A stretch of DNA of 64,000 bases from an uncultured Desulfobacula sp. GTDB taxonomy: Bacteria; Desulfobacterota; Desulfobacteria; Desulfobacterales; Desulfobacteraceae. A program made the position numbers and the translations under genes. Below the pieces are notes generated by a model. It was given only the letters and a program-made list of their open reading frames with translations, was not told the origin of the DNA and ran no database searches. Location: the NCBI GenBank assembly GCA_963674905.2, contig CAXXXR010000002.1, forward strand, positions 2,658,588 to 2,722,587, in the 5' to 3' direction. Below are positions 22,001-39,629 of the stretch, one piece after another. Positions within the stretch are counted from its first letter, which is position 1. Each line of letters begins with the position of its first letter.

Positions 22001-22303
22001 TGGCAAAAAATATGCAGTCCGGCATGTCAGAAAGAACAGCATCGAAGACAGTCTGAAAAATGGAACAGGAAGAATAAGGCGTATTTCAAAAGCAACTATT
22101 TGGCTGATAAGATTGATGCGATTGAGCAAAAGGAACAATCGAAAGATCCACCCATTATTGCACAGCAATCAGATCAGACAAAACCGATTTTACCAATGGA
22201 TGTCATCCTGGCTCAGTGGGGGAAGAGGTCTGAGGTCATCATCCGATATCTGGTCTTCCAGGTCACTCGCCATGTTCGTATCCGGTATAGAAAAAATGCC
22301 TGA
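22001..22303 (+). pseudogene. Remnant of a small Cys-rich protein (WQKICSPACQKEQHRRQSEKWNRKNKAYFKSNYL...), no intact start
   Basis: Open frame after the TGA at 21998. The CxxxCQ...W..KN..YF..NYL pattern resembles small ORFs I recall in deltaproteobacterial IS21-linked elements (unverified). Confidence 0.35.
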
Positions 22304-22586
22304 TAACATCAGGTCGTTTATCCAAAGCAAAGTCCCGACATTCGTTTTCAGATATTCAAAAACAGTGGAAAGAAAATATTTTGCAAACACCTGTCCGTAT
22401 TGCAATGTTATTTACGGCGACTTTTTTCTGCATGATGAAGCTGGGATCCCTTTTTTCCCCGCTGATGAGGACGACGCCAAGTTGCTATATATCAAAGAGA
22501 TTCCTATAAACGGACCCTTTGAAATCGAAGGTGGGGCAGGATCCGGAACGGGAGAAATGATTCTGGATCATGCAATACGAGTATGA
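22272..22586 (+). pseudogene. Probable 5'-truncated gene: C-terminal part resembling DUF5710-associated proteins
   Basis: FRYSKTV...YFANTCPYC...GDFFLHDE.G.PFFP is protein-like, whereas the upstream part of ORF 21858-22586 is not. Confidence 0.45.
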
Positions 22587-22725
22587 GTGCAACAACCATT
22601 AAAAATCTCACAATTATAATTTGTTTTGAACGATCAATTTCATAAACATTGACAAAAAAGCATGCCTTATGTAATTCATTTCAGATGAACCTTCTTTATA
22701 CGCCACAAAATGAGAAAGTATTCTA

Positions 22726-25710: not shown

Positions 25711-25712
25711 TA

Positions 25713-26420
25713 ATGTTCAATGAAAAATATGAATCAGAAGTATCTGGCAGATTATCCGGACCTTACATACCTGAGTTTGACACATCGATCAAAGAGGTGA
25801 TTCTATTCATAGAAAAAAATCTCATTATTTTTTCTGAATCTATTGCGGTGTCCCAAATTCAAAATGAAAAAGGCCTCACACAAACGCTTGTCCAAATTCT
25901 CAATTTAAACGCCATGGGAGGATTTTCACCCTTTTGGTTCGAAAAAGAGTATATGGAAAATCCAGACAGGGGCGACAGCCCCTCGGTTGATATAGGTACG
26001 CTAAAAGTTGATAGTAGCGGTAATGTTATCAATTCAGTAGTTCTTGGAAATAAATCCTTTTATTCGATCGAGGCCAAAAGATTGCCCACACCAGGCAGTA
26101 ATAGAGAAAAAGAATATGTAATCGGTTCAAAAAACAATGGTGGAATTGAGCGCTTCAAAACCGGGAGACATGGATCTGAGCTAAAACACAGTGGAATGAT
26201 TGGGTTTGTTCAGAAAAATGATTTTAAATACTGGAATAAAAAAATTAACGAGTGGATTGTTGAGTTGACACAGACAAATAGCGAATCTGATATAAACTGG
26301 TATGAATCTGAGATTTTAATTCCTCAACATTTTAAAAAGACCACAGCTCAATTGATTTCGAAACACGAAAGAATGAACAAATCATACATATCTTTGTGTC
26401 ATTTATGGGTGTGCTTATGA
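25713..26420 (+). CDS. Hypothetical protein with a PD-(D/E)xK nuclease-like signature
   Basis: NEKGLT...E...SVDIG...IEAKRL, then EYV, GGIERFK.G.H and GMIGFV; starts 2 bp after the MTase stop. Confidence 0.65.
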   Translation: MFNEKYESEVSGRLSGPYIPEFDTSIKEVILFIEKNLIIFSESIAVSQIQNEKGLTQTLVQILNLNAMGGFSPFWFEKEYMENPDRGDSPSVDIGTLKVDSSGNVINSVVLGNKSFYSIEAKRLPTPGSNREKEYVIGSKNNGGIERFKTGRHGSELKHSGMIGFVQKNDFKYWNKKINEWIVELTQTNSESDINWYESEILIPQHFKKTTAQLISKHERMNKSYISLCHLWVCL

Positions 26421-26445
26421 ATGGCGGAATCAAGGACAGTAAACG

Positions 26446-27122
26446 ATGAATCAGTATCAAACAGATTATTCCAATGAAGTTCACCAACTAATTGTAACAC
26501 CATCAAAACATTTTTTCGTCACACGCAATGGCATTTTAAAATATCAAAAGAAACCCTTTGAAATAAAGCTTGAAAATTGTAACAATTTCAAAAAGACGCA
26601 TATAATTCATTATCTTATCAGAGATCATTTTAGCGGGTTGGTTTACTACGAGACATGTACATCTGATGCAGCAATCCCAATTCATGAATTTCTATTTAGA
26701 TCCTGGACTAAAAAGGAAAACAACCTTTCTATGGAATGCCTTCCTGTATGACTATCCCTAAAAATGTCCAACTATTTTTCCCTGGTTTGGTGAATTTTGT
26801 TGAAACATTGGGTATTGATTTCATAAAAGTCACAAGCGGTTTTCAAGGGGGTGTTCGCGACATAAGAACGATAGAAGATGAATTAAGATGCGCTGGATTG
26901 TTTTTGGGGAATCCTGAACAATTTCAGACTGAATTACCTTTTGAACTGATTTTAGAAAAATCATACGAAATCTGTTCCAGGCTTTCAGATAATTTTTATC
27001 GAAAACCGTCAAAAAAAGAAACTTGGTTCTCGGGCTTTGGTTCTGAACAAAAAATAAACATCCCCGAATCTTTAGAAATATTCAAAACTACATATCAAAG
27101 CATCGTGGAATCAGAATTTTGA
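26446..27122 (+). pseudogene. Frameshifted hypothetical gene (ORFs 26446-26751 + 26736-27122), integrase-core/RNase H-like
   Basis: Adding one base in the A-runs at 26710-26720 joins ...HYLIRDHFSGLVYYE...FLFRSWTKK to (E/G)KQPFYGMPSCMTIPK...; the second frame opens right after TAA at 26709. Confidence 0.6.
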
Positions 27123-27160
27123 TAGATAGAAACTTGAAAGCATACATATTCAAGAGTAAA

Positions 27161-27210
27161 TCCTAACAAAAAAATGCTGACGGGCAAGCCGCAGATTTTT
27201 GTGGTTGGGC
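27161..27210 (+). mobile_element. attC: Short attC-like integron cassette recombination site
   Basis: R'' TCCTAAC and R' GTTGGGC (exact GTTRRRY); arms aaaat[G]ctg[A]cgg / ccg-cag-atttt pair with two extrahelical bases; 39 bp downstream of a stop codon; only 50 bp long. Confidence 0.6.
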
Positions 27211-27215
27211 ATCCG

Positions 27216-27253
27216 TAATCACGCTTGACGTTAATCACGCAATGCGTTAATAT
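27216..27253 (+). promoter_or_regulatory. higBA promoter with probable operator
   Basis: TTGACG (27225-27230), 17 bp, TAATAT (27248-27253); direct repeat taatcacgc x2 (27216, 27232); palindrome acgca-a-tgcgt (27237-27247). Confidence 0.7.
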
Positions 27254-27259
27254 ATACCC

Positions 27260-27538
27260 ATGATAAAATCTTTCAAATGCAAATATACAAAAGCACTTTC
27301 GAAAGGCCAACGTGTTAAGCAGTTCGTAAATATTGAAAATGTTGCACGGCGTAAACTTAGGCAGCTTGAAATTGCTGGTCGAATTGAAGATTTGAGAGTC
27401 CCACCCGGAAATCACCTTGAAATGCTCAAAGGTTACCGTTCCGGCCAACACAGTATTCGAATAAACGATCAGTGGCGCCTTTGCTTCTGCTGGACGGATG
27501 CAGGTGCGGAAAATGTGGAGATAGTTGATTACCACTGA
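27260..27538 (+). CDS. higB: RelE/ParE-family toxin HigB
   Basis: MIKSFK, ARRKL..L, DLRVPPGNHLE.LKG.RSGQHSIRINDQWRLCF.W and VEIVDYH. Confidence 0.95.
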   Translation: MIKSFKCKYTKALSKGQRVKQFVNIENVARRKLRQLEIAGRIEDLRVPPGNHLEMLKGYRSGQHSIRINDQWRLCFCWTDAGAENVEIVDYH

Positions 27539-27550
27539 GGAGGATGTATT

Positions 27551-27862
27551 ATGAATAAGCTTAAACCGATTACACCGGGCGAGATTCTTTTGGAAGAATT
27601 TCTCAAGCCTATGGGTATCAGTCAATATCGTTTAGCCAAGGAAATAGACGTTCCTGCTCAGCGCATCAGTGAAATTGTTGCCGGGAAGCGCTCGGTTACT
27701 GCTGATACAGATTTACGGCTATGTCGATTTTTTGGTTTATCCAATGGGTACTGGCTTCGAGCACAAGCTGCTCACGATACGGAAATAGCCGAGCGAACCC
27801 TGAATGATATCATCATAAAAATCAGACCCTGGTCTGAGCATGTTGCCCAGCCAAACGCTTGA
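27551..27862 (+). CDS. higA: HigA addiction-module antitoxin (HTH)
   Basis: PITPGEILLEEFLKPMGISQYRLAK, RISEIVAGKR.VTADT.LRL.RFFG and W...Q..HD; GAGGAGG RBS. Confidence 0.95.
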   Translation: MNKLKPITPGEILLEEFLKPMGISQYRLAKEIDVPAQRISEIVAGKRSVTADTDLRLCRFFGLSNGYWLRAQAAHDTEIAERTLNDIIIKIRPWSEHVAQPNA

Positions 27863-27973
27863 GAGGGACTGGGCTTACTGAGCGGCTTTTCGCAAATATG
27901 TGGTTTGAAAAATAAAAACTATTATCTGAGGTTCCGGGTTCAAGACGCCCGGCCCCTCAGCTCCACGTTAGCC
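27845..27973 (+). mobile_element. attC: Long (129-bp) attC-like site closing the higBA cassette
   Basis: R'' GCCCAGC (AAC>AGC variant) overlaps the higA 3' end; L arm gcttgagagggactgggc pairs with gcccggcccctcagc via bulges; ends tcagctccac-GTTAGCC. Confidence 0.72.
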
Positions 27974-28182
27974 CTTTTGTTCTATAAACACACATTAAAT
28001 TCAGACCTCCTGACATCAGGCATTTTTAAATGCAAAATATGCCGCCTGAAAAACAAGTTTGGTTCAATTTTTTAAAACCTCACCTCTCGCAGATGAAAAC
28101 ATTGACGTGTCGAGGAATAAAGATATTCCAAGGGATATGGAAAATCCAGAGATGTCACGGCGGTGCTGTAAAAAGCCTCCTT

Positions 28183-29175
28183 CTAAACGGGTGTGGCTTC
28201 AGTGCCGGTCAGGGGGAAGTGACAGGCCACAAATTCACCCGGCCCGATTTCCCGCAGCCCGGGCAATGTGGTCCGGCAGATGTCTTTGGCGTAGGCACAC
28301 CGGTTTTCAAATCCGCATCCCTTTGGGAGGTTAAAGGGGCTGGGCACTTCTCCCTGGACTTTAGGGGCCCGGATTTCTGCAAGGGGGTCTGCCGTATACA
28401 CAGAGTCCATCAGGACTTTTGTATAGGGATGCCGGGGTTTTTGGCGGGACAGATCGGCTGAAATGATTTCCACGATTCTGCCCAGGTACATAACGATGAT
28501 GCGCTGGCAGAAATAATCCACCAGGGCCAGGTCATGGGAAATAAACAGATAGGTCATGTCGAACTGATCGCCCAGTTCCTGGAGAAGCAGGATAATCTGG
28601 GCCTGAACCGAGACATCCAGGGCTGCCGTGGGCTCATCCAGAATGATGAATTCCGGGACCAGGGCCAGGGCCCGGGCAATGACGGCCCGCTGTTTCTGGC
28701 CGCCGGAGAGCTGGTGGGGATAGGCCCGGCAGTGCTCCGGTTTCAGGCCCACCATGCCCAGGAGTTCCAATATCCGTTCATTTATCTTTTCCTGGGGAAT
28801 GGGGACCTTTTGAATCTTGAACACCTCTTCCAGACTCCGGTAAATGGAATTTCTGGGGTCAAGAGATGAATGGGGGTCCTGGAACACCATCTGCATTTTC
28901 CGCCTCAACCTGCGCAGCCGGGTTTTTGAAATCTGATTGATCTTTTGTCCGTCAAAGAGAATGTCGCCGAAAGAGGGTTTGATCAGGTTTAAAATGAGTC
29001 TGGCAAGGGTGGATTTGCCGCATCCGGATTCGCCCACAACCCCCAGGGATTCTCCCTTGAAAATATCAAAAGAAACATCATTCACAGCCTTTACCTCGCC
29101 GATTTTCCGGTGCATGAGTCCGCCGGTCACCGGGAAAAATTTGGACAGGTTCCGGACTTGAACAAGGGGCTTCAT
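28183..29175 (-). CDS. Peptide/nickel ABC transporter ATP-binding subunit (DppF/OppF-like)
   Basis: [23 protein letters not shown] and HPYT...C.F..RC; ATG 29175 overlaps the upstream TGA. Confidence 0.92.
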
Positions 29176-30155
29176 TGGGCGGTCCTCCACTGGCTGGTGA
29201 ATTGATGGCATTTCACCCGGGTATTGTTCTTCAGGGTCTGGGTTTTGGGGACAATTTCTTTGCAAAGGGGCCTGGCCTCGGGACACCGGGGGTGGTACCG
29301 GCACCCTTCAGGAAAGGTTCTCACGCTGGGAACGTTTCCCGGAATCGCGGCCAGGGACCTGTCCGTCATGCCCAGTTTGGGGATGCAGCCCAGCAGGGCC
29401 CGGGTATAGGGATGGCCCGGGTCCGTAAAGATTGAGGTCACAGGACCTGTCTCCACCAGGGTTCCCGCATACATGACCACCACCCGGTCACACAGATGGG
29501 AAATGATACCCAGGTCATGGGTGATCATGATCAGTCCGATATTCCTTTCCAGGGTGGTCTGTTTGAACAACTCAATAATCTGGGCCTGGACCGTTACATC
29601 CAGGGCTGTGGTGGGTTCATCCGCAATGAGAAGCCGGGGGTCGGCACACAGGCCCATGGCAATGACGATTCGCTGTTTCAGTCCCCCGGACAATTGATGG
29701 GGATATTGGCCGAATACCTTTGCCGAGTTGGGAATGCCCAGGGATGTCATCACCTCCACGGCCCGTTTTTCCGCCGCATCCCGGGTGATATCCATGTGCA
29801 GTTTCAATCCCTCCACAATCTGATCCCCCACCCTGTAAACCGGGTCAAGGGAGGTCATGGGGTTTTGTGAAATCAAAGAGATTTGGTTTCCCCTCAACTG
29901 CTGATACATCTGTTCTGAAATGGTGAGCAAATCCTGATCCTTGAAAAAAATCCTGCCGGCAGAGACCCTGCCGTCCAGAAACGGGAGCAGTCCCATGATG
30001 GCCTGGGCCGTAACGGATTTGCCCGACCCGGTTTCACCCACGATCCCCAGGATTTCTCCGGCTTCCATGTCAAAGCTGATACCGTTCAAGGGCTCCACCG
30101 ACCCGTCCCGGGTTTTGAATTCCACCTTTAAATTTTCCACCGTTAAAAGACTCAT
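29172..30155 (-). CDS. Peptide ABC transporter ATP-binding subunit (DppD/OppD-like)
   Basis: GETGSGKS, LSGGLKQR, IADEPTTALDVT and GCRYHPRC. Confidence 0.93.
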   Translation of the reverse strand: MSLLTVENLKVEFKTRDGSVEPLNGISFDMEAGEILGIVGETGSGKSVTAQAIMGLLPFLDGRVSAGRIFFKDQDLLTISEQMYQQLRGNQISLISQNPMTSLDPVYRVGDQIVEGLKLHMDITRDAAEKRAVEVMTSLGIPNSAKVFGQYPHQLSGGLKQRIVIAMGLCADPRLLIADEPTTALDVTVQAQIIELFKQTTLERNIGLIMITHDLGIISHLCDRVVVMYAGTLVETGPVTSIFTDPGHPYTRALLGCIPKLGMTDRSLAAIPGNVPSVRTFPEGCRYHPRCPEARPLCKEIVPKTQTLKNNTRVKCHQFTSQWRTAQ

Positions 30156-31036
30156 TTAAGGGTATCCTCCCGGATATCCATGATATCCACCAGAGCATCC
30201 CCGAAGAGATTGAATCCAAAAACAGTTATCATCATGGCGATCCCCGGAAAAATAATCACCCAGGGGGAAATGAACAGATAGGCGGTTCCATTGCTCATCA
30301 TGGCTCCCCAACTGGGGGTGGGGGGCTGGGCGCCCATGCCCAGAAACCCAAGGGTGGCCTCCAGTACAATGGCCTGGCCGATGCCGATGGTGGCGGCAAC
30401 AATCACCGGTGCAATTGCATTGGGGAAAAGATGTTTGAACAGGATGGTAAAGTCCGTTGCCCCCAGGGATCGGGTGGCCTCCACATAGATTTCATTTTTC
30501 AGCATCAGGATCTGGCCCCGGATCAACCGGGCATACTGGGCCCAATAGGTCAGGGCAATGGCAATGATCACGCATTCAATGCCTGCGCCTACCACGGCCA
30601 CCAGCAAAAGGGCCACAAGGATTTCCGGCAGGGACCAGGTCAGGTCCGTGATAACGGATAAACTCTGGTCCAGCCAGCCTCCGTAATATCCGGCCAGGGC
30701 TCCCAGAATCACCCCGATGATCACCGACAGCCCCACCGACACAACCCCCACATACACTGAAATCCGTGATCCGTGGAGAATACGGGAGAACACATCCCTT
30801 CCAAACTCATCGGTTCCCATGAAATGGTCTCCGGACGGCGGGCTGTTCATGATGCTCAGGTTTTGTTCTTTGTACGAGTAGGGGGCGATCAAATCGGCGG
30901 ACAGGGCAATAAAGATAAGGCCTGCGATGATGATCACGCCCAGGAGCCCGGCCCTGTTTGATTTTATTTTTTTGACCCGTCTCAGCCATCGGTTGGCCGG
31001 CGGTCGGATACTGTCTTGATTCTGATTGTTTTCCAT
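30152..31036 (-). CDS. Peptide ABC transporter permease (DppC-like)
   Basis: HFMGTDEFGRDVFSR, EAA-like YVEATRSLGA, KHLFPN and LGFLGMGAQPP.PSWG. Confidence 0.92.
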   Translation of the reverse strand: MENNQNQDSIRPPANRWLRRVKKIKSNRAGLLGVIIIAGLIFIALSADLIAPYSYKEQNLSIMNSPPSGDHFMGTDEFGRDVFSRILHGSRISVYVGVVSVGLSVIIGVILGALAGYYGGWLDQSLSVITDLTWSLPEILVALLLVAVVGAGIECVIIAIALTYWAQYARLIRGQILMLKNEIYVEATRSLGATDFTILFKHLFPNAIAPVIVAATIGIGQAIVLEATLGFLGMGAQPPTPSWGAMMSNGTAYLFISPWVIIFPGIAMMITVFGFNLFGDALVDIMDIREDTLK

Positions 31037-31065
31037 AGGTGATCGTTAAAACCTACCCCTTTGTT

Positions 31066-31992
31066 TTAGTGGTGTTGATCCCTGACCCTGGGATCGGTGA
31101 GGGCGTAGAGGATGTCGGCCAGAAAGGTGCCCATCATGATGCCCATGGCCAGGATCAGCATGGCCCCCTGGATCACGGGGTAATCCCTTCGAAACAGACC
31201 GGTGATGAGCAATTGTCCCAGACCCGGCCGTCCAAAAACGATTTCAACGGTGACGGTTCCCCCCAGAACCCACCCGATCCGCAATCCCAGGATGGTGATC
31301 ACCGGTATCAGGGCATTCCTTAAAATATGCTTGAGCAGGATGGCTCGTTTGCCCAGGCCCTTGGCGTGGAGCATCACAATAAAATCCTTGGATGCCACCT
31401 CGAGCATGGACACCCGGGTGACCCTTGCAATGAGCCCGGCCCCCCCCAGCCCAACCGTCACCGCCGGAAGCACCAGGGACATGAGGCTGCCGGACCCGGA
31501 AATCGGGAACCAGGTCAGCCAGACAGCAAAGATCAGGATGAGGATCAGCCCCAGCCAGAAAGCCGGGATGGTCACCCCGAACAGGGCCACCAGCATGGCC
31601 AGATGATCAAAAATGGTATTTTTGGCCGCCGCAGAGATGATGCCCATGGAAACCCCCAGCACAAAGGAGAGCACAATGGCGGTGAGACCCAGGGAGAGGC
31701 TGTAGGGCAGGTGGTGGAGCAGAAGTTCCGTGACCGGCCGTTTTTCGATGATGGACCGCCCCAGATCCCCGTGGAGCATATTTTTAAACCAGAGATAGTA
31801 TTGGACGGGAATGGGTTTGTCCAGATGGTATTTTTCCACCAGTTTTTGTTCGTGGGCCTTGGTCATCCCCGGTCCCATGAGGTTGTCTATGGGGGTGCCC
31901 GGTACGATGTGAATCAAAGAAAAAATAATGATGGACACCACCACAAATATCGGGATCATCAATAAAGAACGGCGTAGGACAAACTGCCACAT
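31066..31992 (-). CDS. Peptide ABC transporter permease (DppB-like)
   Basis: HLDKPIPVQY, GDLGRS, IPAFWLG, HAKGL, KHILRNA and FGRPGLG; likely ATG 31992. Confidence 0.92.
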   Translation of the reverse strand: MWQFVLRRSLLMIPIFVVVSIIIFSLIHIVPGTPIDNLMGPGMTKAHEQKLVEKYHLDKPIPVQYYLWFKNMLHGDLGRSIIEKRPVTELLLHHLPYSLSLGLTAIVLSFVLGVSMGIISAAAKNTIFDHLAMLVALFGVTIPAFWLGLILILIFAVWLTWFPISGSGSLMSLVLPAVTVGLGGAGLIARVTRVSMLEVASKDFIVMLHAKGLGKRAILLKHILRNALIPVITILGLRIGWVLGGTVTVEIVFGRPGLGQLLITGLFRRDYPVIQGAMLILAMGIMMGTFLADILYALTDPRVRDQHH

Positions 31993-32093
31993 GCTTTTCT
32001 TCTCCAGAGGTTTTTTGTTTAATTTTCCCCGGATTTTTCCGCTGCCGCCAGGCAACTGAAAAACCCGGGGAACACTTTATGGAAAAGAAGGGA

Positions 32094-33668
32094 TTATTTT
32101 AAATCCCAGTCCAGTACGCCCATTCCCATGAAACGCCGGTCAAGGGCATTTTCAGGATAGACCAGCCGTTTGCCAACGGCAAAAATCGTATCCGGCAGAT
32201 AGAACGGTGCCCACACATACTGGTTCAGAAGGTAGGTGTGATACGCCTTGAAATTTTCCACCCGTTCTTCCTGGGTCCGGGACCGGGTCATGGCTTTGTG
32301 CATGAGATAGTCTGCCTCGTTGTCATGGTACATGGCGGCATTGGGATACCCCATGCGGGTTGAGTTTAAAAACCACTCGAGGATGTCGGCATTTTCCCAT
32401 TCATATGAACGGATGGCCAGTTGGTGTTCCCCTTTTTTGTAGTAGGCCCGGATGGAGCTTGGGTCCATGAGGGTGATTTTTGCATCCACACCGGCCTTTG
32501 CCAACTGGGCCTGGATCACCTCGGCAGACCGCCGGTAGGAGGATTCATTCTTGGCCAGGAGTTTCAGCTCAAGTTTGTTGCCGTCCTTGTCCTGGCGGAT
32601 CCCGTCCGGTCCCATTTTCCAGCCCGCCTCTTCAAAGGCGGCCTTTGACCCTTCAAGGTCAAACCGGATCTGGTCTTTGACCGCCACCTTGCTTGCCGGC
32701 AGTGAATCGATAAGATAGGTGTAGGCGGGCTTGCCCGCATTTGCAAACACACTCTTGGTGATGCTGGCCTGGTCCACTGCCAGGGCAATGCCCTTTCTGA
32801 CCAGCACATTGTCCAGGGGAGGGGACTGGGTGTTCATGACCATGTGGTACAATGAATCCCCGGGCTGCCGGATAAGCCCCAGGTTTTTATCCTGTTCAAT
32901 CTTGTCAATGAACATGGTGGGGACCGAAAAAACCACATCCAGTTTCCCGGTTTTCAGCTCTAAAAACCGGGTGGATTCTTCTTTCATATCCCGGTAGATG
33001 ACTTTGTCGATGATGGCCGGCCCTTTGTTGTTCACCAGGGCCGGTCCCCAGGTGTACTCCTCGTTTTTGGTCAATACCAGTTCATTCCCCGGCGACCAGG
33101 ATTCAAACTTATAGGGGCCTGATCCCACCACATGTTTGGTGCCGAACTCTTCGCCATACTTTTTATAGGCCACCATGCTGGGAACCGCCATAAAGGTCTG
33201 GGACATGTTAAAGAACATGTTGGGGTCGGGGTATTTATAGTGGATGATGACGGAATGGGGTCCTGTGATCTCCACATTGTCTATGGAGGCCACCATGTAT
33301 CCCGAGGGACCGGTTTCCATTTCCTTGAGGAACCATTTTACCAGTTCAGAATTAAAGGGAGACCCGTCATGAAACTTCACCCCTTTTTTTAACTTCACAT
33401 CCCAGGTCAGGCCGTCATCACTGATGGTCCAGGATTCAGCCAGGGACGGGTAAAATTTTCCATCGATTCCCCATTCAATGAGTTTGTCAAAGATCAGGGA
33501 CATGGCCTCGTGATTGAGCTCCACTTTAATGGGGTTAAATGTTGTGACCCCTAGTTCATTGGGATCACCGGCGGCATAGATGACTTTTTCCGCCTTTGCA
33601 TGCACAGGTGCCAGAATAAACAATGCCGTCAACAGCATTAAACATAAACAACCAATCCTTTTTTTCAT
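32094..33668 (-). CDS. Family-5 ABC substrate-binding protein (DppA/OppA-like)
   Basis: Signal peptide MKKRIG...PVHA, LAESW, VKFHDG and VGSGPYKF; AGGAGG RBS before ATG 33668. Confidence 0.92.
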   Translation of the reverse strand: MKKRIGCLCLMLLTALFILAPVHAKAEKVIYAAGDPNELGVTTFNPIKVELNHEAMSLIFDKLIEWGIDGKFYPSLAESWTISDDGLTWDVKLKKGVKFHDGSPFNSELVKWFLKEMETGPSGYMVASIDNVEITGPHSVIIHYKYPDPNMFFNMSQTFMAVPSMVAYKKYGEEFGTKHVVGSGPYKFESWSPGNELVLTKNEEYTWGPALVNNKGPAIIDKVIYRDMKEESTRFLELKTGKLDVVFSVPTMFIDKIEQDKNLGLIRQPGDSLYHMVMNTQSPPLDNVLVRKGIALAVDQASITKSVFANAGKPAYTYLIDSLPASKVAVKDQIRFDLEGSKAAFEEAGWKMGPDGIRQDKDGNKLELKLLAKNESSYRRSAEVIQAQLAKAGVDAKITLMDPSSIRAYYKKGEHQLAIRSYEWENADILEWFLNSTRMGYPNAAMYHDNEADYLMHKAMTRSRTQEERVENFKAYHTYLLNQYVWAPFYLPDTIFAVGKRLVYPENALDRRFMGMGVLDWDLK

Positions 33669-33803
33669 GTGTTCCTCCTTGCCGCTTCTTGTTGGGTTAA
33701 ATATTGCTGGGTTAAAAATAGTGTTCCATTTCATACCTTATCGTACCATGGCCGCCGGTCCAGGTATCCCTGTTAATTTAGGACCGTAAATTCATCCTGA
33801 GTC

Positions 33804-35489
33804 CTAATCCCTGACCAGTCGTTTTCCGGGAAGTGCTCTTGTGTGTCGTCCGTTCTCGATCACCAGCCTGCCGTTGACCATCACATGGACGATCCCCTGG
33901 GGATACTCATGGGGATGATCAAAACTTGCCTGGTCCTTGACCGTGTTTGGATCAAACAGCACCAGGTCGGCTGCCCGGCCTTTCTGGATCAGGCCCCGGT
34001 CTTTGAGACCGATCTTTTTTGCGGGAAGGCCGGTCATTTTGTGAATGGCCTGTTCCAGGGAGATGACCTGTTTCTCCCGGACATATTTTCCCAGGATCCT
34101 GGGAAAGGTTCCGTAAAACCGGGGATGAACCGGTGATTTCCCGCTGGGGCCAAGGGGGGAAACAGAGCGCCCGTCCGAACCGATCATGCCGAGCGGATCT
34201 TTTAATATGGTGATCAGGTCCTGTTCAGACATGGCAAACACGATCATGCTCAGTCCGCCCTTTTCTTGGCAGTACACCTGGAAAACAGCCTCCACGGGCT
34301 CAAGTCCCAGGACCTCGGCCAGAGCCCGGATGGTAAGACCGTTCAGTTTTTGGTTTTCCGGCAAGGTATATCCCATGATCCTGGCCTGGTCCCAGTCCAG
34401 TCCCTCCATGGGATTTTCCCATCCCGATGAGGGATTGATCATGTCCGCCCTTACCTTTTTTCGGGTTTTGGGCGAGTTGAGGATCTGCCTCATCTGTTTT
34501 GCCCCGCATTCCTTGGCCCATGGGGGAAAAATTTCGATTAAGCCGGTACCATAGGCAGTATAGGGATATTGATCAAAATGGACCTGGATTCCCTCCTGCC
34601 GGGCCTGGTGGATTTTTTCCAGGACCAGGGAGGCTTTTCCCCACATGGCCGGGGTCTCACACTTGAGGTGGGAAATTTCCAGGGATACCCCGGATTGCCT
34701 TGCCGTTGCCAGGGCCTCGTCCACGGCTTCAAATAGAAAGGTTCCCTCGCTGCGCATGTGGGTTGAGTACATGCCGTTGAAGGCGGCCACCTCTGCGGTG
34801 AGCTGGGCCAGTTCCGGGGATCGGGCAAAGGCTCCGGGATGATAGATCAGGCCGGATGACAGACCAAAGGCACCTTTTTCAAGTTCTTGCCTTAAAAGGT
34901 GTTTCATACGTTGCATCTCTGTCTGGTCCGGCACCCTGTTTGCATATCCCATGACATTGGCCCTCAGGGTGGAGTGTCCCACCAGAGGGGCCACATTCAC
35001 TGCCGTACCCTTAGTATAAAGGTGATCGTAAAAATCATCCAGGGTTTTGAATTGCCATGCCTGGTCCGGTAAATGCCGTTTATAGTGTTTGCCCAGATCG
35101 GTCATATACTCCATAAAGGCATCTTTTCCCGAGTCAAGAATCGGGGCGGGCGATCCCCCGCAATTGCCCGTGACCTCCGTTGTCACCCCCTGGCTCACCC
35201 GGCTGTCGGCCGTGGGTTCCAGGAGGAGAGAAAAATCCGAATGGGTGTGGATGTCGATGAAACCCGGGCTTACCACCAGTCCTGATCCGTCGATGATCTT
35301 TGCACTGGCCCGGTCCATTCCGGTTCCTTTAACAGACGCTGAAACAGGCTCACTCCCAGGTTCTATAACAGACTCTATAACTGGCTCTATACTGGTGATG
35401 ATTCCGTCGGCAACGGTTATATCGGCAAAAAAACCGTCTGCACCGGTGCCGTCAATCACCCGGGCATTTTGAATGATCAGGTCAGGCAT
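33804..35489 (-). CDS. N-acyl-D-amino-acid deacylase (D-aminoacylase, amidohydrolase superfamily)
   Basis: PGFIDIHTHSD, GNCG, THMR, SHLK, IGSDG, HPRFYGTFPR and ADLVLFD; 8-bp overlap with the upstream gene. Confidence 0.9.
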   Translation of the reverse strand: MPDLIIQNARVIDGTGADGFFADITVADGIITSIEPVIESVIEPGSEPVSASVKGTGMDRASAKIIDGSGLVVSPGFIDIHTHSDFSLLLEPTADSRVSQGVTTEVTGNCGGSPAPILDSGKDAFMEYMTDLGKHYKRHLPDQAWQFKTLDDFYDHLYTKGTAVNVAPLVGHSTLRANVMGYANRVPDQTEMQRMKHLLRQELEKGAFGLSSGLIYHPGAFARSPELAQLTAEVAAFNGMYSTHMRSEGTFLFEAVDEALATARQSGVSLEISHLKCETPAMWGKASLVLEKIHQARQEGIQVHFDQYPYTAYGTGLIEIFPPWAKECGAKQMRQILNSPKTRKKVRADMINPSSGWENPMEGLDWDQARIMGYTLPENQKLNGLTIRALAEVLGLEPVEAVFQVYCQEKGGLSMIVFAMSEQDLITILKDPLGMIGSDGRSVSPLGPSGKSPVHPRFYGTFPRILGKYVREKQVISLEQAIHKMTGLPAKKIGLKDRGLIQKGRAADLVLFDPNTVKDQASFDHPHEYPQGIVHVMVNGRLVIENGRHTRALPGKRLVRD

Positions 35490-36669
35490 GGCCGCCCTCC
35501 TTTTCATTATTCAGGGTTTTTTTCCTGGGGGTGGTGTCGGGCAGAGCCTCATGGGTCCTGATAAATTCCTGGATCACGGGAAGGATTTTGTCGATGGACT
35601 CTTCTAAAGGGCAGATCACGGGAATTTTGAGTCTTTTTTCAAGATGACGGCTGTATGCGGCCAGGTCTGCTTTGCCAGCGCCCGTGCCGTTGAGGGTCAC
35701 GGCAATCACCCGGGTGCCGTACATCTCAATGAGTCTGATTTCGCTGTCAATATCCGGGAGCAGGCACCCCAAATTTTCCGTTGAGTCATAGAATTCCCGG
35801 AACGGGGTGTGCTGAAGCACCACGCCTTTGATGTTTCCCGACACAATGATCTCAGATCCGCAGGGGCCCAAAGGATTCCTCATCCCGGACTGCCCCTCCA
35901 GGATTATCAGATCCGGGCAGGCCTCACGCTCGCACTGGACAATGGCGTTTTCGACCTCTCCGCTGACAAAATCATTCACCGTGGTGTCCAGAATAAATCC
36001 ATAGGGATTTCCCTGGAGCCAGCCGGTCTGGCCGGTATAGATCATCTCGGCCCATATCCCGGCGCTGGAGCAGACGTCGACCATCATCCTGGAAGTGGTG
36101 CGTTTGCCCAGGGCACAATCCGTCCCCAGAACGGCCAGGCGGGGCACCCGCATGTCAAAGATTTGGCCCGACCAGAAATGAAGCTGATCAAAGGGCTTGT
36201 GCCGCCGGATATCAATGATGGTGACATTGTTATCCCGGGCAGCCTGCCTGAAAGTCGGATGGTCACCCAGCAGCATGTGCATTCCGTTGACAATGGAGAT
36301 CCCGCAATTGATCATGTCCAGGGCCAGGGCCTGCCAGTGTTCATCCAGCCTGCCCCCGCAAAGGGCCACACCAATGATCGCAAAATCGGGTTTTTCTCTT
36401 CCGGAAGCCAGGAAGGCGTCCCTGTCTTCATAAACCGGGATGTCCCGAAAGATCCCGTCCAGGACCTCTCCGGCATCTTGACCTGCGCTGTTAGAGTCTA
36501 TGACGCCCATGATCTTAAACCGTTGGGTGCCACGGATCAGACCGTGGGCCGTCTTTGCATCGGCCTGGTCCAGGAGGCCGTTGGTCAGGATAACGGCAGT
36601 GCCCATCATCATGGCGTTTTTCTTTTCCAGATAAGCCTTTGTTTTTTCTGTTTTTGTATCAGGTTTCAT
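35482..36669 (-). CDS. DUF1611 protein, DgcN-like D-amino-acid N-acetyltransferase
   Basis: AKTAHGL, GTDCALGKRTT, TGQTG, DFVSGEVE and EGQSG; TAATG overlap with the epimerase gene. Confidence 0.85.
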   Translation of the reverse strand: MKPDTKTEKTKAYLEKKNAMMMGTAVILTNGLLDQADAKTAHGLIRGTQRFKIMGVIDSNSAGQDAGEVLDGIFRDIPVYEDRDAFLASGREKPDFAIIGVALCGGRLDEHWQALALDMINCGISIVNGMHMLLGDHPTFRQAARDNNVTIIDIRRHKPFDQLHFWSGQIFDMRVPRLAVLGTDCALGKRTTSRMMVDVCSSAGIWAEMIYTGQTGWLQGNPYGFILDTTVNDFVSGEVENAIVQCEREACPDLIILEGQSGMRNPLGPCGSEIIVSGNIKGVVLQHTPFREFYDSTENLGCLLPDIDSEIRLIEMYGTRVIAVTLNGTGAGKADLAAYSRHLEKRLKIPVICPLEESIDKILPVIQEFIRTHEALPDTTPRKKTLNNEKEGGHA

Positions 36670-37733
36670 TAGATTTTTTTGACTCCCAGCCCCGGTAGAT
36701 CTGTGGTCCGCATCCATCCGTTTTCCATTATAAAACCGTTGGTTACAATATCCCGAGCCAGATCCAGGCTCCCGTCAAGGTCCAGGTATTTGGTCGCTTT
36801 GGAGGCAAGGGCCGCATGGAGTGCCCCGGATATACCGATGATACTCTCATCCATGCACCCCCACATCAGGTCAATGCCTGCCAGGTCTGCCATGCCGGCG
36901 ATTTCCAGCCCAGGACCAATGCCCCCGCATTTCATGAGTTTGATATTAAAAATGCCAAAGGGGTGGGGGGGACAGAGTAGATCAATTGTGGTTTCAGGCC
37001 CCAGAAGGCTTTCATCGGCAGCGCAGATTTTCCGGATATCTTCGGGCATGGACTGCATGGTCCCGATATCACCCGCCTTAAGGGGCTGTTCAATGAATTC
37101 TACCATTCCCGCGGTTTTTTCAAAAAACTTTTGTAATTCTTTGCCGCCGTATCCCTGATTGGCATCCACCCGCAGGAGTATTTTTGATCCAAAGGTTTCA
37201 TTCAGTCGGAAGATGCGCACCATATCCTCTTCAAGGTTCAGCCCGGTTTTAATCTTCAGGATGGAAAATCCCCTGTCCAGGTATTCTCGGGCCTCTTCCA
37301 GGGTTTCATCCACCCCCTTGATCCCGATGGTGATAGAGGTGGGCAATGTCTCGTGGACCCGGCCCAGGATGTCCACCAGGGGAAGCCCCATGGTTTTGGC
37401 CGAAAGATCGTGAAGCGCGATATCTGCTGCGGCCAATGCCGCGGGCGTGGCGGAAAGCTCCTCTTTCAGTGTCTTGAGAAGTGTCCTGGAATATCGGAGG
37501 TCTTTTCCCATGAGAATACCTTCAAGTCGGGTGTTCAATGCGGTCTCAGACGCCTCAAGGCTCTCGCCGGTCACATCTTCGGCAGGAGACCCAACTCCCA
37601 GGCCCGTGACCCCGTCTGTGGTCTCAAGGCAGACAAACAGGTTTTCCACCGAAGAGATGGTTTCATAGGCAATGGTATAGGGCCGTGTCAGTTCCAGGTC
37701 CTCTTTCCACACACTGATCTTTTTGATTTTCAT
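36669..37733 (-). CDS. Enolase-superfamily dipeptide epimerase (L-Ala-D/L-Glu epimerase / DgcA-like)
   Basis: KIKTG, RVDANQ, IEQP, ADES, NIKLMKCGG and DLDG; likely ATG 37733. Confidence 0.9.
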   Translation of the reverse strand: MKIKKISVWKEDLELTRPYTIAYETISSVENLFVCLETTDGVTGLGVGSPAEDVTGESLEASETALNTRLEGILMGKDLRYSRTLLKTLKEELSATPAALAAADIALHDLSAKTMGLPLVDILGRVHETLPTSITIGIKGVDETLEEAREYLDRGFSILKIKTGLNLEEDMVRIFRLNETFGSKILLRVDANQGYGGKELQKFFEKTAGMVEFIEQPLKAGDIGTMQSMPEDIRKICAADESLLGPETTIDLLCPPHPFGIFNIKLMKCGGIGPGLEIAGMADLAGIDLMWGCMDESIIGISGALHAALASKATKYLDLDGSLDLARDIVTNGFIMENGWMRTTDLPGLGVKKI

Positions 37734-37750
37734 ACATTTGTCCTTGGAAG

Positions 37751-38248
37751 TTATTTTATCCAGCCGCTGATCTGGGGCGGCAGAAGGGTCCACTTGCGCC
37801 GGGTATTGGTCACCATGAATGATTCCGCATGGCTGATCCCGTCTATTTTGCTCATCTGTTCTTCGTAGAATTGAAACATCCATTCAATGCCTTCGGTCAC
37901 GATGATTTCGGCAAAGATATCGTAGCGGCCGGTTACGGCTACGGCCCAGTGAACATTTTCAAACTCCATGAGCTGATCAATCACCTGCCCCATTTTTCCG
38001 TTATCATCCACCCGGATGGCAATGATGGCCACCAGCATATCCTTCACCCGGAAGGTGTTAACCATGCCGGCCACTTTGAGGATGCCCCTTTCAATGAGGG
38101 AATGGACCCGGGATTTGATGGTGGGGGCCGAGACCTTGAGATTTTCCGCCATTTCCTTGGCCGGCATCCTGCCGTCCTGGGAGAGCAGTTTGATCACCTG
38201 CCGGTCCAATATGTCCAGTTCTTTGTCGTCCGGCATTTTGTCTGCCAA
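37751..38248 (-). CDS. Lrp/AsnC-family transcriptional regulator
   Basis: LDILDRQVIKLL.QDGR, HTH, and a C-terminal RAM domain VTGRYD. Confidence 0.92.
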   Translation of the reverse strand: MADKMPDDKELDILDRQVIKLLSQDGRMPAKEMAENLKVSAPTIKSRVHSLIERGILKVAGMVNTFRVKDMLVAIIAIRVDDNGKMGQVIDQLMEFENVHWAVAVTGRYDIFAEIIVTEGIEWMFQFYEEQMSKIDGISHAESFMVTNTRRKWTLLPPQISGWIK

Positions 38249-38400
38249 TCCTTATTTAGGGATCACCCAAAGTTGCGTTATCGGCACTTTTGTTAAAAGT
38301 TTTTATTGAGGATAAGGCCCTGTCCAAAAGTATAATAATGCAAGCACGACCCCTGTTATCCCCTGGGTGCTTTATAATATGATATTTCAATGGGAAAAAA

Positions 38401-38444
38401 TTATATTATATAAAATGTATTGTCAATAATTTTATATAATATAA
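38401..38444. promoter_or_regulatory. 44-bp near-perfect AT-rich palindrome containing TTGACA on the minus strand
   Basis: ttatattatataaaat-g-tattg-t-caata-attttatataatataa: perfect 16-bp outer arms and 5-bp inner arms; upstream of the lrp operon. Confidence 0.65.
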
Positions 38445-38452
38445 ACAAAAAA

Positions 38453-39481
38453 TCAGGACAGGTGCTTGAAATACCATGGCGCGGCCTGGTCAAGCCCCTG
38501 GAGCACGGAGAATTGTGGATGGTACCCCAGAAGGGATTTTGCCTTTGAAATGTCGGCCAGAGAATGCTTCACGTCTCCGGGCCGAAAATCGCGATAGGTA
38601 GGGCTGACTTCGGCATGGTCATCCTTGAGAGCCTTCACCCGATCCTGGATATGGGTGAAAAGCTGGGTCAGGGTGGTTCTTTCGCCAAAGGCAACGTTGT
38701 AGACCTGGTTGAAAGCCTCCGGGTTTTCGGCTGTTGCCGCCATGATATTGGCCTGGACGCAATTGTCGATATAGCAGAAATCACGGCTGGTTGTCCCGTC
38801 CCCGTTGATAAAGATTTCTTCTCCGGCCATTAAGCCTGCAAACCACTTGGGGATGACCGCGGCATAAGCCCCGTCAGGGTCCTGGCGCTGGCCGAAGATA
38901 TTGAAATACCGGAGCCCCACCGGCCTGATTTTGTAACACCGGCAGAAGACATCGGCATACAGTTCGTTCACGTACTTTGTCACGGCATAGGGGGAGAGGG
39001 GCCGCCCTATGAGGTCTTCCTGCTTGGGCAGGCCGGGGTGATCCCCATAGGTGGAGCTTGATGCGGCATAGACAAAGGTTTCAACCTTCTGATCCCGGGC
39101 CGCCACCAGCATGTTTAGAAATCCGGTAAGATTGTTGTCATGGGTGAGTACGGGGTTTTCAAGGGAGCGGGGAACCGAACCCAGGGCCGCTTCGTGCAGG
39201 ACATAGTCGACATCCTGGCAGGCCTGGTTACAGGTATCCGCATCTCGGATATCTCCCCGGGTAAAAGAAAACCTGTCCCACTGGGCCGGGGTCACAAGGG
39301 CTTTTACCTGATCCAGGTTGTGCTGCCGGCCCGTGGAAAAATTATCAAGTCCCTTTACCTGCTGGTCGCAGGCCAGCAAAGTTTCCAGAAGGTTTGACCC
39401 GATAAATCCGGCCACGCCGGTTACCAGCCATTTTTTCGGAGAGGCTGCCAGGTCTTCCTTCACTTGGGCATAGTGTCGCAT
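38453..39481 (-). CDS. UDP-GlcNAc/GalNAc(A) C4-epimerase (WbpP/TviC-like SDR)
   Basis: [41 protein letters not shown] and [10 protein letters not shown]; ATG 39481 follows a GAGGTG RBS. Confidence 0.92.
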
Positions 39482-39526
39482 ATCCACCTCATCTATGATT
39501 TCATAAAATAATGGATTACCATACAC

Positions 39527-39629
39527 GAGTTGCCTGGAAAAATAAAACTCAAAAAAGTCTGCTGGATATTTGCCGGTCCTTTTCATCAAGATCCTGTACG
39601 GAACGCCAATAAATCATTCACTGCAACTC
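39527..39629. mobile_element. Shorter relative of the 21505-21658 MITE
   Basis: Begins gagttgc and ends gcaactc; 39592-39629 matches the 21621-21658 right IR with about 4 substitutions; no target duplication seen. Confidence 0.55.

Follow-up and report, generated by a model that had tools for sequence, protein, structure and literature searches.

The DgcN-DgcA(-DgcH) system is the D-glutamate catabolic pathway of Pseudoalteromonas sp. CF6-2 (Yu et al., 2023, ISME J 17:537). Comparison with its enzymes was made through the NCBIfam equivalog models NF041892 and NF042940. The N-succinylamino-acid racemase (NSAR) pathway of Geobacillus kaustophilus reportedly combines a GNAT succinyltransferase, NSAR and an L-desuccinylase in an irreversible D-to-L conversion. 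Cationic dipeptide epimerases are said to have been assayed on dipeptide libraries only, with their biological role left open. The D-acylase Bb3285 reportedly accepts both N-acetyl-D-Glu and L-Met-D-Glu. D-acylase site residues have been described for KleDacyl, AfaDacyl and Bb3285, and a cascade of NSAR with a D-acylase is functional in vitro (PMC12149444).

We analysed a window of 64,000 nucleotides from an uncultured Desulfobacula sp., in which nine co-oriented minus-strand genes run from 38248 to 28183 (ORF calls with translations, Pfam/NCBIfam scans). Their order is lrp, epimerase, DUF1611, D-aminoacylase-family amidohydrolase and the genes of a Dpp/Opp-type ABC importer (Table 1). The gene families named in the original prediction agree with the domain scans, and the arrangement it described, with TAATG and an 8-bp overlap between the enzyme genes, was confirmed by ORFs, domain scans and junction reads. 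As read from the sequence, lrp and the epimerase gene are spaced by 17 nt, the epimerase/DUF1611 junction is TAATG (36671-36667), and the DUF1611/amidohydrolase junction is ATGCCTGA, an 8-bp overlap (35489-35482) preceded by AGGAGG. A gap of 135 nt lies between the amidohydrolase and the ABC genes, as against these tight overlaps among the three enzyme genes. Further on, an AAGGAGG ribosome-binding site precedes the binding-protein ATG at 33668, and by ORF coordinates there is one 4-bp overlap each at permC/atpD and atpD/atpF, the atpF ATG at 29175 overlapping the atpD stop codon.

The cluster was surveyed across genomes, and the same nine-gene order was found in 9 other species and an eight-gene version without lrp in 2 more. 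Upstream of lrp, 12 species share an ATTGACA box followed by an AT-rich stretch. Since the gene order recurs across species and this TTGACA box is conserved, the arrangement is not due to chance. The genes are presumably co-transcribed. A 12-bp inverted repeat (38440-38429 and 38416-38405) that flanks the -35 box occurs in the source genome only among the compared species; it could be an operator. A generic promoter scan gave a chance-level result. The lrp ORF starts at TTG 38248, with ATG 38236 the more likely start. Orthologues of lrp (73-86% identity) lie directly upstream of the epimerase gene in 9 loci and in Desulforapulum autotrophicum HRM2. The host genome carries dsrAB, so that its earlier description as a sulfate reducer was fair.

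Table 1. Features of the operon and its upstream region (window coordinates).
Feature	Position	Strand	Features supporting the assignment
Probable operon promoter	38398..38440	-	TTGACA box 38426-38421, then AT-rich -10 region
AsnC/Lrp-family regulator (lrp)	37751..38248	-	HTH_AsnC-type and AsnC_trans_reg domains
Enolase-superfamily dipeptide-type epimerase	36669..37733	-	MR_MLE_N and MR_MLE_C domains
DUF1611 protein	35482..36669	-	DUF1611_N and DUF1611 domains; DgcN-family fold, not DgcN equivalog
N-acyl-D-amino-acid deacylase-family zinc hydrolase, predicted cytoplasmic	33804..35489	-	best PDB matches 3GIP, 9G5M, 1M7J
Periplasmic family-5 substrate-binding protein	32094..33668	-	SBP_bac_5, 276 bits; Sec signal peptide
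DppB/OppB-type permease	31066..31992	-	BPD_transp_1 and BPD_transp_1_N domains
DppC/OppC-type permease (permC)	30152..31036	-	BPD_transp_1 and OppC_N domains
DppD/OppD-type ATPase (atpD)	29172..30155	-	ABC_tran and oligo_HPY; 4-bp overlap with permC
DppF/OppF-type ATPase (atpF), last operon gene	28183..29175	-	ABC_tran and oligo_HPY

The operon had been proposed as a Dgc-pathway variant. This holds insofar as a putative DUF1611 acyltransferase is paired with an enolase-type epimerase, but neither protein is a DgcN or DgcA equivalog. The DUF1611 protein scores 104.8 bits on the DgcN model (cut-off 480) and the epimerase 131.6 bits on the DgcA model (cut-off 400), which excludes the D-Glu version of the pathway. 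PDB matches of the DUF1611 protein are 2G0T at 144 bits and the DgcN homologue 7XRJ, probably the DgcN structure itself, at 70.8 bits; we propose that it is an N-acyltransferase for a D-amino acid. In 64 of 80 loci its gene and that of the epimerase are same-strand neighbours, and these loci span Desulfobacterota, Acidobacteriota, Bacteroidota, Gammaproteobacteria, SAR324 and KSB1. An unbiased sample of 151 genomes of the order likewise gave adjacency in all six genomes having both genes of our type. The two proteins diverge in step, epimerase and DUF1611 being 54% and 50% identical to the L043 pair, 37% and 38% to the tier-2 pair, and 32% and 26% to DgcA and DgcN. One metagenome-assembled genome holds a pair of our type alongside a true DgcN-DgcA pair, whose scores of 531.8 and 485.1 bits exceed the respective cut-offs; from this coexistence we infer that ours is a distinct paralogue, a separate specificity of the same two-step design.

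What that specificity may be is indicated by the epimerase. It matches PDB 3RIT/3RO6 ("Dipeptide epimerase"; E = 1e-112, 54% identity to 3RIT) and is an orthologue, at 72% identity, of Swiss-Prot C0QM06 ("L-Lys-D/L-Arg epimerase"). In alignment the catalytic residues match those of C0QM06, the 50s loop and the GCMDES and DLDGS segments are identical, and the 20s loop differs by one residue over its aligned part; a subfamily-invariant Asp takes the place of Ile298 of Bacillus subtilis YkfB. Because its orthologues are named for L-Lys-D/L-Arg, the D-residue handled is probably basic (of Lys, Arg or Orn type). N-acetyl-D-Glu and L-Ala-D-Glu, earlier considered as substrates, are disfavoured by the same naming, and nothing ties the operon specifically to D-Glu or to peptidoglycan peptides. 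The evidence points instead to the fallback offered in the original prediction, a different amino acid or peptide delivered by the family-5 binding protein.

The amidohydrolase aligns with solved D-acylases at 245-255 bits, 3GIP, among its best matches, being an N-acyl-D-glutamate deacylase, and scores 178 on the PRK09061 subfamily model (cut-off 340). It has each of the amidohydrolase motifs HxH, GNCG, YPY, SDG and HPR. Those D-acylase residues of the metal, carboxylate and acyl sites that could be mapped are retained without exception: for the metals the HxH, the bridging Cys, two His and an Asp, at the carboxylate site the YPY Tyr and the HPR Arg, and at the acyl site a Tyr and an Asp. No residue could be assigned to the side-chain site. 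The amidohydrolase differs from the solved enzymes in being encoded beside an importer and an epimerase pair, and in an enlarged mobile lid about 100 residues longer than theirs (residues ~318-413 are unaligned). No signal peptide was found in the operon enzyme. All 11 loci with this amidohydrolase also hold Dpp-type ABC genes, and an amidohydrolase-superfamily hydrolase is present in all 12 loci that have a Dpp-type importer; a paralogue in the same genome, 38% identical, lies in another Dpp operon that lacks DUF1611 and epimerase genes. Bacteroidota counterparts have a signal peptide in 16 of the 16 cases with the N-terminus on the contig (a beta-lactamase-family domain is fused in 7 of those 16, and in one more cut at a contig end), and thus cannot act after a cytoplasmic pair. 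Because the hydrolase travels with the importer and Bacteroidota export their version, its step more likely precedes the DUF1611-epimerase pair than follows it as that of a third Dgc enzyme, the place earlier considered for it; the accompanying argument, that no D-specific deacylase can follow a DgcN-like step, is upheld. The Bacteroidota role may not transfer to the operon enzyme, because those hydrolases are only ~31% identical to it and are without the Cys ligand.

The operon is most likely a variant of the known D-glutamate salvage route, not a copy. We tentatively read it as an AsnC/Lrp-controlled salvage of D-amino-acid-containing peptides, by import, hydrolysis, N-acylation, epimerisation and housekeeping deacylation. 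A first module, importer plus amidohydrolase, would use the family-5 binding protein and the Dpp/Opp-type transporter to take up a small peptide, or an N-acyl amino acid, that ends in a C-terminal D-residue, and the zinc hydrolase would free the (probably basic) D-amino acid in the cytoplasm. A second module of lrp, epimerase and DUF1611 would follow, in which the DgcN paralogue would N-acylate the D-amino acid from a presumed acyl donor and the epimerase would invert the acylated residue at C-alpha. The L-amino acid would then be freed by an L-specific housekeeping deacylase or dipeptidase whose gene lies outside the operon. This second module stands alone in HRM2, where the C0QM06 gene adjoins DUF1611 in an lrp-epimerase-DUF1611 neighbourhood and the pair has no peptide importer nearby. 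Elsewhere the pair is partnered by a polar amino-acid ABC importer (Desulfotignum- and SAR324-type loci) or by an APC permease and the exported hydrolase (Bacteroidota). With an amino-acid rather than a peptide transporter as partner, an acylation step is needed to make the epimerase substrate.

Several points count against this salvage. A cytoplasmic D-acylase expressed together with a D-amino-acid N-acyltransferase would set up a futile cycle if the hydrolase accepted the product of DUF1611, and no L-specific deacylase gene was found within the operon. To judge from the tight overlaps of their genes and the gap that separates these from the ABC genes, the three enzymes may act as one unit. 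The peptide as cargo is an assumption, because the binding protein has no close solved relative (best PDB match 139 bits) and the nearest ones bind glutathione, nickel, opines or peptides. Finally, the only activity attached to close epimerase relatives is on free dipeptides, for which DUF1611 is not needed.

In a direct dipeptide route, which we consider rather unlikely, the importer brings in basic L-Xaa-D-Yaa dipeptides, the epimerase turns them into L,L-dipeptides and general dipeptidases finish, with the hydrolase as a parallel L-Xaa-D-Yaa dipeptidase and DUF1611 in another role, such as detoxifying released D-amino acid. Orthologues of the epimerase have been assayed in vitro for that conversion, its closest relatives (3RIT, C0QM06) are named and solved as dipeptide epimerases, and a Dpp-type importer lies in the same operon; the D-acylase family also reportedly includes enzymes cleaving L-Xaa-D-Xaa dipeptides. 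However, this would leave unexplained the most conserved feature, the synteny of DUF1611 with the epimerase subfamily, as well as the many lineages that pair both genes with amino-acid transporters and the HRM2 pair with no peptide importer nearby, and the paralogous DgcN-DgcA pair is known to acylate first and then racemise.

It is improbable that the amidohydrolase instead ends a Dgc-like pathway, with DUF1611 acylating a D-amino acid, the epimerase inverting it and a hydrolase of evolved L- or other acyl specificity freeing the L-amino acid. The translational coupling of the three enzyme genes would fit, amide hydrolases recur beside DUF1611-epimerase pairs (M20 in L046, a creatininase-domain protein in the tier-2 cluster), and the enlarged lid could alter specificity. 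Yet all D-acylase-defining carboxylate-site and metal residues are kept, we know of no L-specific member of the D-aminoacylase family, the hydrolase tracks the ABC genes rather than the pair, and its Bacteroidota counterpart is exported. In an L-to-D scheme, DUF1611 would put the acyl group on an L-amino acid, the epimerase would bring the acylated L- and D-forms to equilibrium and the D-specific deacylase would withdraw free D-amino acid. Only this scheme would make these three activities chemically coherent in one compartment without extra assumptions, it has the working in vitro NSAR plus D-acylase cascade as precedent and, if true, it would be nature's PLP-independent equivalent of the industrial racemase-plus-D-acylase process, but it is highly improbable: in almost all lineages the pair comes with importers and an amino-acid-type regulator, the exported Bacteroidota hydrolases do not fit, no basic D-amino-acid consumer gene lies nearby, and both the Dgc relative and the Geobacillus NSAR pathway run from D to L.

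In the salvage reading, the operon likely shares the Dgc logic of acylating and then inverting, by analogy with that pathway. As in Dgc, a DUF1611 gene stands beside one for an enolase enzyme of the dipeptide-epimerase family; the operon DUF1611 has the P-loop (GTDCxxGK), TGQTG and EGQ motifs in common with a bona fide DgcN, and the operon epimerase has the DxD motif in common with DgcA. Unlike in Dgc, neither DUF1611 (26% identity to its counterpart in a true pair) nor the epimerase (32%) comes near its equivalog cut-off, the epimerase belongs to the basic-dipeptide clade whereas DgcA is in a YcjG-like clade, and the cluster includes a D-acylase-family hydrolase, a Dpp-type importer and an Lrp regulator. 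With the G. kaustophilus NSAR pathway the operon shares the strategy of acylation, racemisation by an enolase-superfamily enzyme and deacylation. There, however, the acyltransferase is GNAT rather than DUF1611, the enolase subgroup is NSAR/OSBS rather than dipeptide epimerase and the hydrolase is an L-specific M20 enzyme; a domain scan found no genes of the NSAR-pathway type in the operon. The cationic dipeptide epimerases of D. autotrophicum (C0QM06) and Methylococcus capsulatus (3RIT/3RO6) have in common with the operon epimerase the catalytic Lys-x-Lys, the Asp/Glu/Asp metal ligands, the second catalytic Lys and the DxD motif. What sets the operon gene apart is its neighbourhood of DUF1611, an importer and a hydrolase of the D-acylase family, and this context suggests that the real epimerase substrate is an N-acylated basic D-amino acid.

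The operon comprises nine genes, all on the minus strand between 38248 and 28183, as delimited by ORF listing and translation and by Pfam and NCBIfam scans. This bears out the co-oriented set of lrp, epimerase, DUF1611, D-aminoacylase and importer genes in the original prediction, and direct reading confirmed the TAATG and the overlap that it had placed between the enzyme genes (see table).

Genes and junctions of the operon, in order of transcription within each group
Feature	Position or junction	Strand	Source
AsnC/Lrp regulator (lrp)	first gene of operon	minus	Pfam/NCBIfam
MR_MLE-type enolase-superfamily enzyme (epimerase)	second gene	minus	Pfam/NCBIfam
DUF1611_N + DUF1611 protein	third gene	minus	Pfam/NCBIfam
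D-aminoacylase-family amidohydrolase	fourth gene	minus	Pfam/NCBIfam
Family-5 binding protein, two permeases, two oligo_HPY-tailed ATPases	distal genes	minus	Pfam/NCBIfam
lrp/epimerase junction	17-nt gap	minus	direct sequence reading
Epimerase/DUF1611 junction	TAATG, 36671-36667	minus	direct sequence reading
DUF1611/amidohydrolase junction	ATGCCTGA, 35489-35482; AGGAGG upstream	minus	direct sequence reading
Amidohydrolase/binding-protein junction	135-nt gap	minus	direct sequence reading
permC/atpD and atpD/atpF junctions	4-bp overlap each	minus	ORF coordinates

An ATTGACA box with an AT-rich stretch after it precedes lrp and is kept in both position and sequence in 12 species. Generic promoter and terminator scans gave chance-level results only, an Rfam search of the window gave no match, and reading of the gap between the amidohydrolase and binding-protein genes found no T-tailed hairpin. 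From the overlaps, the conserved putative promoter and the absent terminator, we infer that the operon is co-transcribed. A hairpin with a T-rich tail does occur at the binding-protein stop codon (32090-32107, minus strand), ahead of the permease genes, and could be an attenuator giving surplus binding protein; shuffled sequence contains such hairpins at least as often. A low-GC island (window 22001-28000, GC 0.37-0.385 vs about 0.53 in the operon) borders the operon at its 3′ end. Upstream of the promoter is a gene (38453-39589, minus strand) for a protein of 378 aa that in translation reads like an NAD-dependent sugar-nucleotide epimerase/dehydratase; its neighborhood with the operon is not kept in Desulforapulum autotrophicum HRM2. 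The host (Desulfobacteraceae) genome consists of a 4.77-Mb chromosome and a 0.44-Mb second replicon, and contains dsrAB, in keeping with the description of the host as a sulfate reducer.

The DUF1611 protein and epimerase had been read as a variant of DgcN, a D-Glu N-acetyltransferase, and DgcA, an N-acetyl-D-Glu racemase, and neither role is borne out by the equivalog models. Against the DgcA model NF042940 the epimerase scores 131.6 bits (curated cut-off 400), and against the DgcN model NF041892 the DUF1611 protein scores 104.8 bits (curated equivalog cut-off 480). The positive controls for these searches were a true DgcA at 485.1 bits, which comes close to passing the E. coli YcjG model as well, and a true DgcN at 531.8 bits. 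The DUF1611 protein does have the DgcN architecture, with DUF1611_N and DUF1611 domains, a P-loop, and GTDCxxGK, TGQTG and EGQ motifs; these three motifs are invariant in our DUF1611 alignment A1 and are found also in the DgcN of locus L083. It is nearer to Thermotoga TM0796 (2G0T, 144 bits) than to 7XRJ (70.8 bits), the structure that a bona fide DgcN matches at E = 1e-117. The protein is best described as a relative of DgcN, not DgcN itself.

A gammaproteobacterial metagenome-assembled genome (G001) encodes both kinds of pair: the true DgcN and DgcA that served as controls, adjacent at L083, and a pair of the operon's kind at L043. The two pairs are therefore paralogous, with different jobs. 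Identity to the operon's epimerase and DUF1611 protein drops in parallel, from 54%/50% for the L043 pair through 37%/38% for a second-tier pair of the same order to 32%/26% for DgcA/DgcN.

The best solved relative of the epimerase is the Methylococcus capsulatus enzyme of PDB 3RIT/3RO6, titled 'Dipeptide epimerase' (E = 1e-112, 54% identity). The 3RIT structure is reported to contain L-Arg-D-Lys. Closer still, at 72% identity, is ACN14312.1 of HRM2 (Swiss-Prot C0QM06), whose UniRef name is 'L-Lys-D/L-Arg epimerase'; the C0QM06 and 3RIT proteins are the enzymes that Lukk et al. 2012 reported as 'cationic dipeptide epimerases'. The epimerase was aligned with these two, YkfB, a true DgcA and 19 DUF1611-adjacent relatives. 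All residues typical of the dipeptide epimerase family are present: the Lys-x-Lys of strand 2, the Asp/Glu/Asp metal ligands, the catalytic Lys of strand 6 with a second-shell Lys three residues on, and the DxD after strand 8, in segments (LKIKTG, RVDANQGY, EFIEQP, AADESL, FNIKLMKCGG and YLDLDGS) that align with YkfB and 3RIT. Roles of K162, K268 and K271 have been described (bioRxiv 10.1101/2022.03.03.481873). The 50s loop and the GCMDES and YLDLDGSLDLARD segments are identical between the epimerase and C0QM06, and a single residue differs in the aligned 20s loop. The Asp of GCMDES is invariant across the subfamily; YkfB has Ile298 at this position. By these features the epimerase is a close orthologue of the characterised members of the L-Lys-D/L-Arg (cationic dipeptide) epimerase group. 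Two candidate markers were discarded. DxD fails to discriminate dipeptide from N-acetyl substrates since the true DgcA keeps it, and position 24 (Arg24 of YkfB) varies, being Glu in our epimerase and C0QM06 and Arg in 3RIT, despite the naming of both C0QM06 and 3RIT as basic-dipeptide epimerases; neither is thus diagnostic.

[quoted passage not shown] Aligned to these it keeps the metal ligands, namely HxH, the bridging Cys, two His and the Asp (DIHTHSD, GNCGG, THMRSE, ISHLK, GSDG), the carboxylate-site Tyr of the YPY hinge and Arg of HPR (QYPYT, HPRFYG), and the acyl-site Tyr and Asp (GLIY, SDG); residue roles are from PMC12149444. About 100 of its residues, in the mobile lid, are without counterpart in the solved structures. 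The side-chain-site position (Arg295 in Bb3285, Leu298 in AfaDacyl, Gln292 in KleDacyl) falls where the enlarged lid begins, immediately after the aligned segment, and a search with this fragment alone gave no match. No signal peptide was found in the protein. Read most simply, it is predicted to be a hydrolase that requires its substrate to have a D-configured residue with the alpha-carboxylate free.

The distal genes encode an Opp/Dpp-type importer by their Pfam content: a family-5 binding protein, two permeases (one with OppC_N) and two oligo_HPY ATPases. All its scores on NCBIfam equivalog models are far under the cut-offs. The best solved relative of the binding protein scores 139 bits, and the ligands of its neighbors are glutathione, nickel, opines or peptides.

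The basic-dipeptide epimerase clade is tied in synteny to its own DUF1611 subfamily. A single-protein search of the genome contigs for the locus gave no match, and an alignment-based scan of the contigs yielded 80 DUF1611 loci from many phyla. The epimerase gene directly adjoins DUF1611 on the same strand in 64 of the 80 (epimerase first in 29, DUF1611 first in 35); contig ends truncate at least four of the others. In an evenly drawn sample of 151 genomes of the order, both genes of the operon's kind occur in six, adjacent every time, and a seventh genome has the epimerase alone, on a short contig. DUF1611 also adjoins the nearest relatives of the 3RIT gene in the locus set (59-64% identity). 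Surveyed across genomes, as the original prediction had proposed, the full operon is present in 11 other species, nine of them with lrp. The amidohydrolase gene follows the ATPase genes at L033 and in genome G077, and HRM2 and L004 have lrp-epimerase-DUF1611 only. The specific link to peptidoglycan peptides that had been suggested was rejected: an Amidase_2 gene lies upstream in HRM2 only and is not conserved.

The clade is also repeatedly joined to importers and to predicted D-residue-releasing hydrolases. Wherever the cytoplasmic, Cys-type (GNCG) amidohydrolase occurs, Dpp-type ABC genes are present too (11/11 loci). One locus (L010) has the Dpp-type ABC genes without it, with another Amidohydro_3 hydrolase inside the ABC operon, and L033 has an extra beta-lactamase-family hydrolase. 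In 17 Bacteroidota loci an amidohydrolase about 31% identical to ours, with GQDG where ours has GNCG, is encoded directly upstream of DUF1611, and in many of them an APC permease gene is downstream of the epimerase. A signal peptide is present in all 16 of these amidohydrolases whose N-terminus is complete. Fusion to a beta-lactamase-family domain occurs in seven of the 16 and in one more that is truncated by a contig end. In Desulfotignum, SAR324 and a delta-proteobacterial genome, the pair is accompanied by a polar amino-acid ABC system. This survey of partners suggests that the operon consists of two modules, one of importer and hydrolase and the other of lrp, epimerase and DUF1611.

Several loci merit description in their own right. 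The exported Bacteroidota fusions, about 840-860 aa (L044, L055, L064, L065, L070 and L074, with L076 cut at a contig end), combine a Cys-less D-aminoacylase-family domain with one of the beta-lactamase (serine hydrolase) family, and their genes immediately precede DUF1611/epimerase. At L046 (3840-14260, delta-proteobacterial) the pair and polar amino-acid ABC system occur with an M20 hydrolase, a YheO-type regulator, Thr/Ser-dehydratase-like (EutB-like) and cyclodeaminase-family (EutC-like) enzymes, and an aminotransferase nearest GntC/VioD, whose nearest named relatives act on arginine derivatives. Most of these genes are shared by the SAR324 locus L030, and the set may point to the breakdown of an amino-acid derivative, basic or cyclic. 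Elsewhere in the operon's own genome, a second Dpp-type ABC operon (C2:202730-214671) includes genes for a paralogue of the amidohydrolase, which shares 38% identity and the enlarged lid with it, and for an Amidohydro_3-like protein of 573 aa; a glutamine-amidotransferase-like and two M20-like genes follow, and neither DUF1611 nor epimerase was found in this operon. Importer, amidohydrolase and enolase-type enzyme apparently come in another combination on the second replicon (C1:164796-173376), the families being named from sequence: a Dpp-type ABC importer and an amidohydrolase of 409 aa are encoded there with a GntR-like regulator and an enolase-superfamily protein (370 aa, 27% identity to the epimerase). 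A conserved four-gene cluster (L096-L101, e.g. L097:4712-10407), present in about 14-15 of the 150 genomes sampled from the order and absent from the operon's own, encodes in order a ThrC-like PLP enzyme, DUF1611, a protein of about 800 aa with an N-terminal SGGKDS PP-loop motif and C-terminal creatininase-family domain, and a dipeptide-epimerase-like enzyme; it looks biosynthetic.

Most observations are fitted by a model that we favor tentatively, at somewhat short of even chances. A peptide or N-acyl amino acid with a terminal D-residue would be taken up, the D-residue would be freed by the amidohydrolase and N-acylated by the DUF1611 protein, as DgcN does to D-Glu, the acylated residue would be inverted by the epimerase, and a housekeeping L-deacylase would complete the route. 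The residue is taken as basic because of the orthology to L-Lys-D/L-Arg epimerases. The main weakness of the model is the possible futile cycle between a D-amino-acid acyltransferase and a D-acylase that is itself cytoplasmic. The hydrolase must favor peptide acyl groups and refuse the DUF1611 product, and how the two enzymes work side by side without such a cycle is an enzymological puzzle. A direct dipeptide route, calling on the activity for which the epimerase's relatives are named, is rather unlikely and leaves DUF1611 unexplained. That the amidohydrolase, with its D-acylase residues, is instead an L-specific terminal deacylase seems quite improbable. Very improbable is an L-to-D 'acyl-handle' cycle of the three coupled enzymes, in which DUF1611 would load a basic L-amino acid with an acyl or aminoacyl handle, the epimerase would equilibrate it and a D-specific deacylase would free D-Lys, D-Arg or D-Orn; if true, basic D-amino acids would be made by a natural dynamic kinetic resolution that needs no PLP.

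For the epimerase and DUF1611, synteny gives a proposed role in inversion of basic D-amino acids by acylation then epimerisation, under which the acylate-then-flip logic would reach past D-Glu. Anaerobic sediment bacteria would then own a dedicated, oxygen-independent route by which D-Lys, D-Arg or D-Orn in peptide debris becomes usable, with a bearing on necromass and D-amino-acid turnover in anoxic sediments.

The nearest known system is DgcN-DgcA, presented in PMC12363236 as a pathway that racemises acidic D-amino acids irreversibly. The operon's pair differs from it in falling below both equivalog cut-offs and in having an epimerase of another clade. The Geobacillus NSAR pathway has similar chemistry in protein families different from those of the operon. 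To our knowledge, no biological role has been assigned to the 'cationic dipeptide epimerases', which are active in vitro, and DgcN is the one characterised member of DUF1611. New here are the assignment of the epimerase to the basic-dipeptide clade, the tie of a cytoplasmic hydrolase to a Dpp-type importer, and the Lrp-headed core module.
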